A DNA stretch of 16,260 nucleotides from a virus: UHGV virus genome UHGV-0143875, one strand, 5' to 3'. Both the position numbers and the translations under genes were made by a program. Shown here piece by piece: positions 1,939 to 11,223 of the stretch (positions within the stretch are counted from its first letter, which is position 1; every line of letters begins with the position of its first letter). The notes below the pieces were generated by a model. The model had not been told where the DNA came from and searched no databases. It was given only the letters and a program-made list of their open reading frames with translations.

Positions 1939-2549
1939 GCAGCCTCACTTCTGCTGTTTCGCAGTTTTTTAAGTTTCTGTTGATACTCCGCCTTGATGGT
2001 CTTGCACTCTTCGACAGTCCAGCGATGGCGGTTATGGTTTGATTCGATTTCCTCTACTGCTTCCTGCCCGATGCGGCTAATCAGTTCGACGCAATACGGA
2101 ACGAGATTTCCGCTTTTGTGCTGGTTGCACACCACGCATTGCTTGTGAATATTGCGTTCATCAAATCGGAGTTGAGGTGCCGCAGCAGTTGTCCGGTAAT
2201 GTCCGGCATCCCACTGAGCAGACGTGAGCGTTCCGCACGAGATACATGGTAAGTCGCGGTCTCTTTCTCTGATGAAGGCGTTTACGGCTTGTTGGGCTTG
2301 TTTAATCCAGTAACTGCGGGGCTTTAAGGCGAGTTTCCGAATCTTAAGTTTATCTTTCTGTTTCTGCTCCTCTCGTCGTCGTTTCTTCTCTGCTGCTTTT
2401 TCCGCTTTTTCGCGTTCTTTACTTCGTCGTTCGAGTGCTATCTTGGTTCCACACTCTGGAGAGCACCACCACTGATTAGCGAATGCAGGGTGAAACCATT
2501 CCCGGCATTCATCGTTTTTACATCGTCTTCGCGCTGGTTTAGCCATCAT
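1935..2549 (-). CDS. ninG: NinG (Rap-like recombination-promoting protein)
   Basis: 204 aa, Cys-rich with a basic coiled segment; matches lambda NinG by recall; ATGA overlap with ninI. Confidence 0.85.
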
Positions 2550-2733
2550 CTTCTTCCTCGTGCATCGAGCTATTCGGATCGCTCATCAGTTCTGCGCAGC
2601 AGTGCTCACACACGTGAACTTCCAGCACATGCAGCTTCTGACCGCAGTTAGCGCACGTTAAAGCTCGCTCGACGCTTTCTTGTTCGTAACTTCGATTTGT
2701 GTCAATCACCTTGTTTTCCTCATGCGGTTCCAT
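2539..2733 (-). CDS. ninF: NinF-like small zinc-ribbon protein
   Basis: Internal ATG at 2731-2733 of the long ORF 2539..3003 gives [64 protein letters not shown]; the C-terminal two thirds match lambda NinF by recall. The upstream part of the 154-aa ORF overlaps the next gene in another frame and is treated as non-coding. Confidence 0.6.
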
Positions 2734-2848
2734 TTGGCCTGTAACAGCCCGTAGACATAATCGAATGTCTTTACCTGGCTTTCTGTGGGGATTGGTTTCT
2801 TGCGGGATTTGGTGCGTTTGGTAGGAGTAAAAATCAGGTTGTCTAACG

Positions 2849-3022
2849 CTATTTGAGTAACGATTCGTCGCTGTCTCGCCATACGTCCTCCTTTTCCTGA
2901 GGTAGTGGTAACACCCCTGTTGGTGTTCTTTCACACCGGAGACACCATCGATTCCAGTAAGGTTGCCCGGGTCGAAAGCGATCGTCTTCCTTTCGCTCTC
3001 CACATCGATAACAGTGCTTCAT
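2849..3022 (-). CDS. 57-aa CxxC...CxxC zinc-ribbon protein (NinD/ORF57-like by size and position)
   Basis: Start moved to Met7 of ORF 2849..3040 ([34 protein letters not shown]...), giving an ATGA start/stop overlap with the upstream methyltransferase gene. Identity with lambda NinD is not verified. Confidence 0.5.
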
Positions 3023-3609
3023 GCGATCACCATTTTGCATGGTTTAATCGCCATGCCGGGAGCCAGTTCAAAATCGGAGTCGCACTGATTGCCCCACATA
3101 TCCCACCCGGTCACTTTGTCGCGGCTAAATAACTCACAGCGCGGCACGTCGCCAAGCAACTTAGCTAACATGTCTCTTACGATCGGTGGTTTTGCACTGT
3201 GCTCCATTCTCGGTGCGGTAAAGTGCTGGCATATTGAAGCGTCCATTCTCTCAGGCAACCGCCCTCGAACAGCAAACAAGCAATCCTCGCTATTTGCCCG
3301 GGTCATATGCCCCATTCCGATCGCACTGTTGCCTTTGTGCTTATTGGTTTTGTGCCAAGTAAAGCCTTTCATAGTCATCAACCTGAATCCCCACGCCTCA
3401 ATTACCTTTAGCGCTTCGGCTGGCTGTGTCGGCACCCACCACATCGCTAACAAGCAAGATTCTGGATCCGCTAAATCCCATACTGGCAGTCGGCAAATGT
3501 CCTGAACATTCATAACATCGTATTTATGTCCAGCACCGCGATTGCCATCGTTGGCTTTGTCGCGATATTGCCAAGGCGGATCTGCGTAAATAAGTCGGTA
3601 TTTGTTCAT
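3019..3609 (-). CDS. DNA N6-adenine methyltransferase, MT-A70/DPPW family (orphan, no restriction partner seen)
   Basis: 196 aa starting [15 protein letters not shown]...; the DPPW motif near the N-terminus is the catalytic signature of phage Dam-like adenine methyltransferases. Occupies the slot between ninB and ninD (the lambda ninC position). ATGA overlap with ninB. Confidence 0.8.
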
Positions 3610-6449: not shown

Positions 6450-7804
<1,355 letters not shown>

Positions 7805-7854
7805 TCCCCACCTCAATCTCGATAACCAAAAAACAAACTATTTTCCGTTTAAAA

Positions 7855-7935
7855 ACAATGGAGTTTGTTTTTCATGCCCCTTTTTTACAATATTTATTGT
7901 TTACAACATACAATCTTTCTTGTAATTTTAAGCCA
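7855..7935 (+). promoter_or_regulatory. OL operators (three 434-type sites) and promoter pL
   Basis: ACAATGGAGTTTGT (7855-7868), ACAATATTTATTGT (7887-7900), ACAATCTTTCTTGT (7910-7923); candidate -35 TTTACA (7900-7905) and -10 TAATTT (7923-7928); leader beginning ATCAGCAGGACGCACTGACC matches the lambda pL transcript start by recall. Confidence 0.75.
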
Positions 7936-7967
7936 TCAGCAGGACGCACTGACCACCATGAAGGTGA

Positions 7968-7998
7968 CGCTCTTAAAAATTAAGCCCTGAAGAAGGGC
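7968..7998 (+). promoter_or_regulatory. nutL (boxA CGCTCTTA + boxB GCCCTGAAGAAGGGC)
   Basis: boxA at 7968-7975 and boxB hairpin at 7984-7998 in the pL leader upstream of N. Confidence 0.85.
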
Positions 7999-8108
7999 AG
8001 CATTCAAAGCAGAAGGCTTTGAGTAGCGCGAAATGCAGCTGCAAGACAGCAACCGTGGAGATAAGCATCACGGCGCGTTACTCAAAGCTAACTGACAGGA
8101 GAATCCAG

Positions 8109-8435
8109 ATGGATGCACAAACATGCCGCCGCGAACGTCGCGCAGAGAAACAGGCTCAATGGAAAACAGCAAACCCCCTGTTGGTTGGGGTAAGCGCAAA
8201 ACCAGTTAACCGCCCTATTCTCTCGCTGAATCGCAAACCGAAATCACGAGTAGAAAGCGCACTGAATCCGATAGACCTTACAGTGCTGGCTGAATACCAC
8301 GAACAGATTGAAAGCAACCTGCAGCGTATTGAGCGCAAGAATCAGCGCACATGGTACAGCAAGCCACGCAGTGAAATGGGTGTGACTTGTGTTGGTCGCC
8401 AGAAAATGAAATTAGGCAGCAAACCACTTATTTGA
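8109..8435 (+). CDS. N: Antitermination protein N
   Basis: From ATG at 8109: MDAQTCRRERRAEKQAQWKTANPLLVGVSAKPVNRPILSLNRKPKSRVESALNPIDLTVLAEYHEQIESNLQRIERKNQRTWYSKP...; arginine-rich motif at the N-terminus; lambda N by recall. The ORF-track upstream extension (8019-8108) is leader. Confidence 0.9.
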   Translation: MDAQTCRRERRAEKQAQWKTANPLLVGVSAKPVNRPILSLNRKPKSRVESALNPIDLTVLAEYHEQIESNLQRIERKNQRTWYSKPRSEMGVTCVGRQKMKLGSKPLI

Positions 8436-8446
8436 GAGGAATTAAT

Positions 8447-8983
8447 ATGTCATCAATCCGCTTAACTACGAGAATGAAAGAGAAAATCGCTCGTAACGCT
8501 TTAATTAAATCTGGGGTTTTCACTGAGCTTGAAGAAGTAACAAAGTTAAAGAACAAGCTTGCACTTGACGCCAGAGTTGTTGCGTTTGGCGGTAAAAAGA
8601 AAACTGAGGAAGTGGATCAGTTATCATCCAAGTTAATGGCTATAAGCGAAGAACTTGAAAAGCTGGGATGTTCATTTTACTCATGCGATGCCCGTTCAAC
8701 TTCAATTTATCTGACTGTATCTGGCAGAAGGGTTGGCTGGTATTCATATGGGAAAGACGGCAACGGCGAAGATATATTGCTCCCTACTCCGACCAAAGAT
8801 AAATGCATGTTTAGCGCAGAACACGAAATAACAAAAAGGTTTGATGAAATCTGCGCATTGCAACAAAAACTTGAAGCCAAGAAAAAGGATATCGAATCAA
8901 ATGTATGGGCTGCTTTGAACTCAGTCACAACAGTTAAGCGACTTATTGAAGTTTGGCCTGAAAGCAAAGAGTTGCTACCATAA
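8447..8983 (+). CDS. Hypothetical protein, 178 aa, in the N-proximal accessory slot (lambda ral/sieB position)
   Basis: ATG at 8447 preceded by GAGAGGA RBS; MSSIRLTTRMKEKIARNALIKSGVFTELEEVTKLKNKLALDARVVAFGGKKKTEEVDQ...; charged, Lys-rich, no obvious transmembrane segment; lower GC than flanks by eye; no resemblance to Ral or SieB as recalled. Confidence 0.6.
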   Translation: MSSIRLTTRMKEKIARNALIKSGVFTELEEVTKLKNKLALDARVVAFGGKKKTEEVDQLSSKLMAISEELEKLGCSFYSCDARSTSIYLTVSGRRVGWYSYGKDGNGEDILLPTPTKDKCMFSAEHEITKRFDEICALQQKLEAKKKDIESNVWAALNSVTTVKRLIEVWPESKELLP

Positions 8984-9204
8984 GAAGCAGATAAAGCAAG
9001 TACAGCACTTCCTGCTTTACGGGTAGAAGATTTGAATAAGATGATTGTACTTCCTTCCGAGGTCGCATAATCGTCCTTTATTTTTGGCATAAACAACAGA
9101 ATAAACACTGCACTGTGTATTCATTCCAACGAGTGAATACACGGAGCAATGTCGCTCGTAACCAAACAGGAGCCGACTTGTTCTGATTATTGGAAATCTT
9201 CTTT

Positions 9205-9230
9205 GCCCTCCAGTGTGAGGGCCTTTTTAT
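9205..9230 (+). terminator. Intrinsic terminator upstream of cIII (tL-type)
   Basis: GCCCTC-CAGTGT-GAGGGC hairpin followed by CTTTTTAT. Confidence 0.6.
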
Positions 9231-9294
9231 ATGCATACCAATAACGCTTCACTCGAGGCGTTTTCGTTATGCAATCAAACAGAAGGAGCATCCT

Positions 9295-9465
9295 ATGCAA
9301 CAGTTCGCTATTGCAGGGGCGGCATCGGTTCGCCCTTTCAACCCGATTTTATCGGTACAGCATTCACGAAAAAATATTTTAACCGGAGCAGACTTTAAAC
9401 AACCAAGAATGAAAAGCTTGCTCGAAAAGCTTTGGGATATTTTGAAACAACAAGGCCGCCCATGA
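9295..9465 (+). CDS. cIII: cIII-like protein (inhibitor of FtsH-mediated cII degradation)
   Basis: 56 aa MQQFAIAGAASVRPFNPILSVQHSRKNILTGADFKQPRMKSLLEKLWDILKQQGRP after RBS AAGGAG; same size, position and N-terminal MQ-x-AIAG motif as lambda cIII, otherwise diverged. Confidence 0.65.
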   Translation: MQQFAIAGAASVRPFNPILSVQHSRKNILTGADFKQPRMKSLLEKLWDILKQQGRP

Positions 9466-9569
9466 GTTTTACAGATAACTGGTCAGACGAAGAATTCATT
9501 CGTCAGATAAACAAAATGCTCAATCAGCACAAAGAACAGGAGAAAGATGATGATTCTGACTCTGAATGA
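9462..9569 (+). CDS. Possible small acidic protein (35 aa), ATGA-coupled to cIII
   Basis: MSFTDNWSDEEFIRQINKMLNQHKEQEKDDDSDSE; start overlaps the cIII stop; too short for the ORF track; coding status uncertain. Confidence 0.3.
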   Translation: MSFTDNWSDEEFIRQINKMLNQHKEQEKDDDSDSE

Positions 9570-9858
9570 TAAGCGTGAAATATCGCAAATTATCGCAACT
9601 TTTACTGATGAAGATTACGAACGAATCAACAGTGAAGTTGATCGCCTCTGCAAACGTTGCGACCCAATAAGCGAAATGCTTCGCTCATATAAACCAGATG
9701 AACACACTAAAGATGCTATCGACTGGCTGGAAGATGATGACTGTGACTATCAGGAAAAAGCCGCTGAATGGTTCTGGGATGCAATAACAGAAAGAGTTAA
9801 GGCTGAATATGCCTTCGCAATATTCAAACGCAGACAAATTTATGGAGAAGCAGCATGA
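9547..9858 (+). CDS. Hypothetical acidic protein, 103 aa, immediately upstream of and coupled to the RecT gene
   Basis: RBS AGGAG 5 nt before ATG; MMILTLNDKREISQIIATFTDEDYERINSEVDRLCKRCDPISEMLRSYKPDEH...; Asp/Glu-rich; stop overlaps the RecT start (ATGA). In the position lambda uses for kil/gam. Confidence 0.6.
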   Translation: MMILTLNDKREISQIIATFTDEDYERINSEVDRLCKRCDPISEMLRSYKPDEHTKDAIDWLEDDDCDYQEKAAEWFWDAITERVKAEYAFAIFKRRQIYGEAA

Positions 9859-10757
9859 GCAATATCGTTGAATTCGTTAAACATCAGGAGCAGTTATTCT
9901 GCGGGGCATTGACTGAACAGACGGTGACATGGGCTAAGGAAAGCCAGTTTGCAATTCAGTATTTCCAGAAAAATGATTACCTGGCTAAAACGGCACTGGC
10001 AAATCCAACCAGCGCACAGAACGCCATCATCAATGTTGCGGCGATCGGCATCACCTTAAACCCGGCTAGCAAACTGGCTTATCTAGTTCCGCGCGACGGC
10101 ATGGTTTGCCTTGATATAAGTTACATGGGATTACTTCACCTTGCACAGTCGACAGGATCAATTAAGTGGGGACAATGCAAACTGGTGTACTCAAACGACA
10201 CCTATGAATCGAATGGCCTTGATTCAGCACCCACTCACAAATACAACGCATTTGGTGAGCGAGGCTCTATTGTTGGTGGTTATTGCACGGTTAAAACAGC
10301 AGATGGTGACTACCTGACTGAAGAAATGAGTCTGACAGAAATTAAAGCCGTGGAAGCAACGAGCAAGGCAAAGAATGGACCGTGGATGACATTCTGGGAA
10401 GAGATGGCGCGTAAAACCATAGTTAAACGCGCCAGCAAATACTGGCCTAAAGCCCAGCGACTGGATAATGCCATTCACCTGCTTAACGAAGATGAAAGTA
10501 TGCATCAGGAACCAGTTATGCCGCATAAATCAGAGGAAGATATCCGCGAAGATGAACGGAAACGCCAGCAGGAAATAACGGATAAAGCACAACTTCTTTG
10601 TGATGAAATGGCTCAGGCTGAAAACATGGATGATTTGAAGAGATATTTTGCAGAAGCATATCGCCTGACATCTGGAATGAAATTGCAGCAGAACGTACAA
10701 GCCATTTACATAGAATGCAAAGCGAAACTGGAGGTTGCCAGTGAGCAAACTGTATGA
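9855..10757 (+). CDS. recT: RecT-family single-strand annealing recombinase
   Basis: 300 aa; contains the ...NGPWMTFWEEMARKTIVKRASKYWP... block characteristic of the RecT family (compare Rac RecT GPWVTHWEEMAKKT by recall); occupies the lambda bet position. Confidence 0.8.
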   Translation: MSNIVEFVKHQEQLFCGALTEQTVTWAKESQFAIQYFQKNDYLAKTALANPTSAQNAIINVAAIGITLNPASKLAYLVPRDGMVCLDISYMGLLHLAQSTGSIKWGQCKLVYSNDTYESNGLDSAPTHKYNAFGERGSIVGGYCTVKTADGDYLTEEMSLTEIKAVEATSKAKNGPWMTFWEEMARKTIVKRASKYWPKAQRLDNAIHLLNEDESMHQEPVMPHKSEEDIREDERKRQQEITDKAQLLCDEMAQAENMDDLKRYFAEAYRLTSGMKLQQNVQAIYIECKAKLEVASEQTV

Positions 10758-11223
10758 AATAGCCAATGAATACGCAAAGTTGATGGATTCGGATTTAGAG
10801 CCAGAGATGATTGCTGACACAATAGAAGGCATGGAAGGAGAATTTACCGATAAAATAGAGCAACTTCTTGCCATTATTAAAAATGAATCTGGTTATGCTG
10901 AACGCCTCAAGGACGAGGCAAAGTCACTGAATGAACGAGCAGCAGTAATTCAAAATAAGATTGATAGCATTATGGCATATATAGCGTCATCGCTTGAAAT
11001 GGTTGGCAAGAAAAAGATTCGAGCAGGTATTCACCAGGTAACAATCCGCAAACCGTCAGAAACTGTAGAAATCATCGACTCAAGCGCCCTTCCTCAAGAA
11101 TACGTTGAGTTTGAAACGACAATTAAAGCCGACAAGTTGGCAATAAAACACCAACTAAAAGCAGGAATAAATATCCCCGGCGCTCAACTCAAAGTTGGGA
11201 AACCTTCACTTCTTATCAAATAA
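10741..11223 (+). CDS. Hypothetical protein (~160 aa) downstream partner of RecT, probable GTG start
   Basis: GGAGG RBS 7 nt upstream of GTG at 10741; overlaps the RecT 3' end; predicted helical and charged: SKLYEIANEYAKLMDSDLEPEMIADTIEGMEGEFTDKIEQLLAIIKNESGYAERLKDEAKSLNERAAV.... Function unknown. Confidence 0.55.
   Translation: MSKLYEIANEYAKLMDSDLEPEMIADTIEGMEGEFTDKIEQLLAIIKNESGYAERLKDEAKSLNERAAVIQNKIDSIMAYIASSLEMVGKKKIRAGIHQVTIRKPSETVEIIDSSALPQEYVEFETTIKADKLAIKHQLKAGINIPGAQLKVGKPSLLIK

Follow-up and report, generated by a model that had tools for sequence, protein, structure and literature searches.

The window (the whole 16,260-nt stretch of DNA that was analysed) belongs to a lambda-like prophage, and its + strand runs in the pL direction. 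The open reading frame under study starts on this strand with ATG 8447, ends with TAA 8981-8983 and encodes 178 amino acids. It is the first gene after that for antiterminator N, and its product is a member of the Nmad5 family. The region contains the following features.

6679-6714: OR operators of the 434 type, with ACAA-N6-TTGT matches at 6679 and 6701
6771-7403: cI, encoding a 210-aa repressor
7855-7923, + strand: OL/pL region, which drives the operon, with three 434-type operators at 7855, 7887 and 7910
7968-7998, + strand: nutL as read from the sequence, with boxA CGCTCTTAA at 7968-7976 and boxB GCCCTGAAGAAGGGC at 7984-7998
8109-8435, + strand: antiterminator N, lambda type, 108 aa (Pfam N36, E=5e-25), stop codon at 8433-8435
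8411-9074, + strand: cassette without lambda or 434 DNA homology (blastn breakpoints against lambda at 8410 and 9075)
8981-8983, + strand: premature TAA at codon 179 of the Nmad5 gene (K179*), caused by a private A-to-T change at 8981 (AAA to TAA)
8984-9070, + strand: orphaned in-frame 3′ remainder, encoding the conserved C-terminal motif, with the ancestral stop at 9068-9070
9113-9144, + strand: strong RNA hairpin of 14 bp in an intergenic region common to lambda
9205-9231, + strand: first intrinsic-terminator-like site past pL (GCCCTC..GAGGGC followed by a T run)
9295-9465, + strand: cIII homolog, the next backbone gene downstream of the Nmad5 gene, from the gene call on the twin contig L003

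As judged from the sequence, the immunity of the prophage is of the phage 434 type (imm434), since the window contains five ACAA-N6-TTGT operators where 0.42 would be expected by chance, encodes a repressor of 210 amino acids and is 98% identical to phage 434 over positions 6700-8021 (blastn). N and nutL, in contrast, are of the lambda type: the N gene shares 93% DNA identity with lambda N, and positions 7934-8021 are 100% identical to lambda around the annotated NutL site. The exact position of pL within the 7855-7923 region is one that we infer. Downstream, the DNA at 9295-9465 is 79% identical to the cIII region of lambda, and the RefSeq name of the corresponding gene in locus L002 is cIII. 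The Logan contig L003 represents the same prophage as the window and is referred to here as its twin; just past its integrase gene lies a pectinesterase gene, which we take to be ybhC and which would put the prophage at the lambda attachment site.

The nin region contains, on the - strand, a gene for an MT-A70-family DNA methyltransferase (3019-3609, E=4.7e-25), and the nin region of phage 434 carries an annotated DNA adenine methyltransferase at this position. The recombination module at 9855-11223 consists of RecT (300 aa) and Sipho_Gp157, in place of lambda exo/bet/gam, and a 103-aa ORF without Pfam match (9547-9858) is located just upstream of it. No Gam or Abc2 homolog was found among the window ORFs scanned.

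The ORF at 8447-8983 is a real gene. It starts 11 nt past the end of N and is preceded by a GAGG ribosome-binding site (8436-8439, 7 nt before the ATG) which overlaps the N stop codon. The encoded polypeptide contains 21 lysines (30 K+R, 26 D+E; pI 8.8) and is, from its sequence, soluble and without a membrane segment. A previous interpretation of this DNA, made from the letters only (the sequence-only reading), had described an ORF next to N with a good ribosome-binding site and a charged, Lys-rich product, and both descriptions are accurate. It had also claimed a lower GC content than the flanks. The GC content of the ORF (0.402, GC3 0.376) is indeed below that of N (0.495), the upstream (0.44) and downstream (0.43) DNA and the whole window (0.46), but the dip is modest and clear only in comparison to N, the downstream early region being nearly as AT-rich. 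The long antisense ORF at 8707-9108 (- strand), already suspected to be spurious, is rejected as a gene and regarded as a shadow ORF, with no family match in Pfam or PADLOC. Its being open in all 80 close relatives says little because its third codon position coincides with the wobble position of the sense frame. Its conservation does not extend to distant homologs, in which the longest antisense open stretch ranges from 60 to 174 aa.

The cassette in which the gene resides replaces lambda 35062-34081, comprising the end of N, sieB, orf28 and ral, and homology resumes at window position 9075, which corresponds to lambda 34080, immediately beyond ral. Similar to lambda ral and sieB, the Nmad5 gene is an accessory, variable gene, flanked by N and by the conserved DNA that precedes cIII, but the proteins share no sequence similarity. 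In phage 434, 8 nt past the same N and behind the same immunity region, the slot is occupied by CPT_434B_48 ("Nun C-terminal peptide-containing protein"), an unrelated protein of 289 aa, and no DNA homology of 434 to window positions 8391-9090 was detected. Other E. coli prophages with the same N harbor Ral, SieB, DUF2528 or DUF7167 in this slot. The proposal of a replacement hotspot after N is thus borne out, as is the recurrence of the gene at this position: in 84 loci with close homologs the gene is preceded by a lambda-type N in 57 cases, by Ral in nine and by an arginine-rich N-like protein in six, and it is followed by cIII in 49 out of 79. In most loci the gene stands alone between N and cIII, as expected for the single-gene cassette that had been suggested.

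A lambda-type Ral (66 aa) is encoded directly upstream of Nmad5, 37 nt apart, in 9/82 related loci (L019-L021, L033, L059, L061, L065, L069 and L083). The slot can hold tandem accessory cassettes, and Nmad5 and Ral are therefore not simple alternatives; the notion that they exclude each other was abandoned. Neither is Nmad5 a Ral protein itself: the two are not homologous, the protein is assigned to Nmad5, and Ral is a separate neighbour in these nine loci. No SieB homolog was found in the 82 Nmad5 loci.

The protein had been considered unknown, a view that can be discarded. It matches Pfam PF18757 (Nmad5, for nucleotide modification associated domain 5) with E=2e-58 and 198.3 bits, the gathering threshold being 27 bits, as well as PHROG 1965 (E=4.5e-66), a family of unknown function. 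The family was reportedly named by Iyer and coworkers in 2013. NCBI already lists the identical 178-aa sequence (P0283), named "Nmad5 family putative nucleotide modification protein" and seen on 82 contigs. Among 5426 complete E. coli genomes, 211 (about 4%) carry the RefSeq Nmad5 name, and the gene is also found in phages HK542, HK244, mEp235, Kapi1 and PhiR12 as well as in Stx1 and Stx2 phages. An exhaustive profile search showed that the family comprises 2062 clusters at 50% identity; among the best 150 of these, most proteins are 190-220 aa long and match end to end. All contexts examined were of phage or prophage origin, with Nmad5 occurring as a stand-alone protein of about 200 aa, and in these respects the window copy and its relatives are alike. 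The gene is an ordinary member of an already catalogued family. No match was found in NCBIfam or PADLOC-DB (for PADLOC, none at E up to 0.1 with either the 178-aa or the 207-aa form), and single-sequence and profile searches of the PDB yielded chance matches only.

The motifs of the family are RLT..R..I..NA..K.G near the N-terminus, GG, TTxK[KR]L, WPE and a C-terminal LPAxxVxDLNxxIGLP. The window copy lacks the last of these, and no base-modification genes adjoin it. The loss is explained by the premature stop. The Nmad5 gene of HK542, 624 bp long (207 aa), reads AAA at the codon that is TAA in the window. Of 83 loci fetched, 78 have AAA at codon 179 and 4 have GAA; only L003, the twin of the window, shares the TAA. 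All 80 intact relatives fetched encode 207 aa. The natural gene therefore has 207 codons and extends to 9070, and what had been called a 178-aa gene is a truncated form of it. In agreement with this, the Pfam alignment of the window protein covers profile positions 1-181 of 206, so that the domain is not full-length, whereas the orphaned tail alone matches positions 172-206 of the Nmad5 profile with 53 bits. Three changes, Q37K (8555), K179* (8981) and G201V (9048), set the window apart from all 80 intact copies; the placement of two of them in the tail departs only marginally from chance (p about 0.05, our own estimate).

The LPAxxVxDLNxxIGLP segment removed by K179* is, according to sequence alignment, among the most conserved parts of the family. 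It occupies profile positions of about 182-206 and is separated from WPExxELLP by a variable linker of 8-10 residues. An alignment of 95 Nmad5 representatives (25-57% identity) shows just two invariant positions, G48 and N197, and the positions conserved in at least 90% of the sequences include P178, P189, L196, G201 and P203. Six of the 18 most conserved positions of the family are located in the lost tail (P189, L196, N197, G201 and P203) or adjacent to it (P178). Among 64 distinct alleles of close relatives dN/dS is about 0.33, and the intact gene is therefore under purifying selection. The motif was not encountered outside Nmad5 genes in about 100 loci, and the idea that it is a docking peptide common to other phage proteins was dropped. 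The tail also bears a loose likeness to the ClpX-binding peptide of SspB (PALRV) and to beta-clamp motifs; as the shared residues are not the conserved ones, this presumably is due to chance and was not used.

Structure prediction gives a consistent picture of what was removed. In AlphaFold2 models the core (residues 1-178) is confident; with the deeper alignment the mean pLDDT is 90.5, a helix at 193-200 has a pLDDT of about 80, and the linker at 182-189, below 50, is predicted to be disordered. On these models, K179* cuts at the boundary of the folded core and removes the variable linker together with the family-conserved C-terminal helix, which would either pack on the core or bind a partner. 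The predicted fold has no match among solved structures, and a Foldseek search against BFVD gave only other uncharacterised Nmad5 proteins. The modelled fold does not appear enzyme-like, nor do the conserved residues suggest an enzyme. A DNA-mimic anti-restriction protein of the Ocr/ArdA type was also considered and rejected in view of the pI (8.8 for the truncated and 6.05 for the 207-aa protein), the balance of K+R and D+E and the lack of a structural match.

Relatives of the window gene have been inactivated independently by other routes. In Stx2a phages the Nmad5 gene is interrupted after about codon 36 by an insertion of about 1.3 kb, an IS3-family element, and the copy in L065 has an early stop. 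In the Stx2a phage LC616047 (L104) the element, at about 2195-3505, contains two opposite-strand ORFs (108 and 296 aa), and the upstream antiterminator in the IS-split phages resembles P22 gene 24. The insertion leaves a downstream ORF of 152 aa, which is probably the source of a 232-member cluster (P0012) of proteins of the same length.

Loss of the C-terminal helix has probably inactivated or weakened the window copy. It is also conceivable that the tail is dispensable or auto-inhibitory and that the 178-aa allele is functional and possibly even selected, an explanation to which we assign a small chance. Its presence in identical form on 82 contigs, some of which are complete chromosomes, does mean that the allele may keep some activity, and it would fit this explanation that the truncation falls exactly at the core boundary and spares the motif around R165 that is relevant to the Tmn defence system (see below). 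These 82 contigs may, however, represent a single clonal lineage, and among the 84 loci (window included) the stop is confined to the window and its twin. Furthermore, the explanation is difficult to reconcile with a tail motif that is among the most conserved features of the 95 representatives, in a family of 2062 clusters, and the replacement of a near-invariant glycine in the orphaned tail (G201V) fits relaxed constraint. A truncated and probably impaired copy thus remains the preferred description of the window gene.

Indications about the role of intact Nmad5 come from its occurrence in other phages. In N4-like phages the gene order is helicase, DNA polymerase A, DUF6378, ThyX, Nmad5, a PD-(D/E)XK-like protein, a 720-aa protein and an AAA_24 protein. 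In Yuavirus, Nmad5 is located between aGPT-Pplase1 and a thymidylate-synthase-like gene in the thymidine-hypermodification cluster. In SPN3UB it is found in the nin region, two genes away from a queuine-tRNA-ribosyltransferase-like gene of the DpdA type. Because in virulent phages the gene lies in such replication or nucleotide modules, a link of Nmad5 to DNA metabolism is indicated; its location inside head modules in some phages fits poorly with a purely replicative role. The family owes its name to an association with neighbouring genes for DNA base modification, but the window does not show it: no aGPT-Pplase, 5-hmdU kinase or DpdA-type gene was present among the gene calls of the twin contig or the window ORFs scanned.

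On the strength of the family name and this repeated siting next to DNA-modification genes, a real role in base modification could hold. Nmad5 would then be a true accessory subunit of modification pathways that targets or scaffolds the enzymes after replication, with a phage or host DNA-modifying enzyme, for example the nin-region methyltransferase, as its partner in lambdoid phages. The position of Nmad5 within the Yuavirus cluster and directly after ThyX in N4-like phages, its proximity to the DpdA-type gene of SPN3UB and the MT-A70 gene of the window all speak for such a role. We nevertheless regard it as quite unlikely. The 16-kb window contains no hypermodification gene, in most loci the lambdoid cassette consists of Nmad5 alone, flanked by N and cIII, and the Nmad5 fold does not resemble an enzyme. 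Linkage to the nin-region methyltransferase found no support, as an MT-A70 gene is present in only one of the 82 related loci, a count for which the 6-kb flanks limit the test. No hypermodification of lambdoid phage DNA is known.

The only functional study that emerged from a literature search for Nmad5, PF18757 and the RefSeq accession concerns the Tmn defence system (PMC11846954). Yamashita et al. (2025) found that the K296E/K216E substitution in nmad5 of a Dhillonvirus (SM_S22 CDS6) allows escape from Tmn, that deletion of the gene does not, and that wild-type nmad5 could not be cloned and appeared toxic (PMC11846954). Since a lysine-to-glutamate change in this gene gives escape from Tmn, a connection of Nmad5 to defence is also indicated. 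The Dhillonvirus protein belongs to the same Pfam family (E=4.5e-56, read from M81), and the escape residue (K296/K216) aligns with R165 of the window protein, part of the conserved TTxK[K/R]L motif that is still present in the truncated copy. It differs in being larger (about 254 aa) due to a longer central insert, in showing only ~32% identity to the window protein, restricted to the C-terminal 82 residues, and in the location of its gene, which lies antisense among the head genes of a virulent siphovirus instead of in an early operon.

In the prophage, expression of the Nmad5 gene appears to be tied to that of N. Because the gap between the genes is 11 nt and neither a promoter nor a terminator was found between pL and the end of the gene, we infer that Nmad5 is co-transcribed with N, as an immediate-early lytic product that would be silent in the lysogen. 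The consensus scan showed no promoter-like site on the + strand from 7653 to 9467 and no terminator-like site on the + strand from pL to 9205, a crude search that a weak internal promoter or a Rho-dependent terminator could escape. Further downstream, region 9071-9300 is strongly structured (fold z = -5.96), with a second terminator-like hairpin at 9243-9262, and positions 9075-9232 are 96.8% identical to lambda 34080-33923; we take this region to be probably the tL2 terminator region of lambda. A search of Rfam with 7700-9700 gave nothing significant.

The sequence-only reading had called the gene a moron, which implies a promoter of its own and expression in the lysogen, and the scan argues, if weakly, against this; with the gene repressed in the lysogen, abortive infection or exclusion is therefore the least likely of the functions it had listed, and anti-restriction or host takeover are conceivable. 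A lysogen-expressed moron that guards the host by abortive infection or superinfection exclusion in the manner of sieB or rexAB is accordingly very unlikely: the slot is that of lambda sieB, the GC content is below that of the flanks and some predicted or validated defence operons carry nucleotide-modification-associated domains (PMC13092281), but the gene abuts N in the pL operon with no promoter-like site upstream, the protein is soluble without a membrane segment and has no PADLOC match, Nmad5 is widespread in strictly virulent phages (N4-like, Yuavirus), and the gene is repeatedly disrupted in prophages.

The window ORF is thus a truncated prophage copy of Nmad5, the first gene of the pL operon after N. 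Taken as a whole, the view that combines this with a role of Nmad5 as an early binding factor is the one that we favour, though tentatively and with rather less than even confidence. The functional part of this view, with Nmad5 as a non-enzymatic early binding factor acting in phage DNA metabolism, host takeover or counter-defence, is possible but doubtful when considered by itself. Binding would occur via a conserved basic surface (R5, K21, R43, K52 and K164/R165) together with the C-terminal helix, and the protein would, right at the onset of infection, engage either phage DNA or a conserved protein of DNA handling or surveillance.

In practical terms, the annotation is corrected from a new 178-aa protein to an Nmad5 gene truncated by a nonsense mutation. 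Of broader interest is the family, which has more than 2000 clusters at 50% identity, occupies the first slot after N and has one published genetic link to Tmn. The natural K179* truncation and the intact 207-aa alleles provide a ready allelic pair for examining the role of the C-terminal helix. In an extended and rather unlikely version of the binding-factor proposal, Nmad5 would be a widespread non-enzymatic immediate-early effector, with the basic face and the C-terminal helix, acting as a latch, engaging a conserved bacterial DNA-handling or immune-sensing component; it would be toxic to the host or trigger sensors such as Tmn, and hence be repeatedly disarmed in prophages. If this is true, K179*, the IS insertion in Stx2a phages and the early stops would be examples of such disarming, and the name "nucleotide modification" would be a misnomer for the family.
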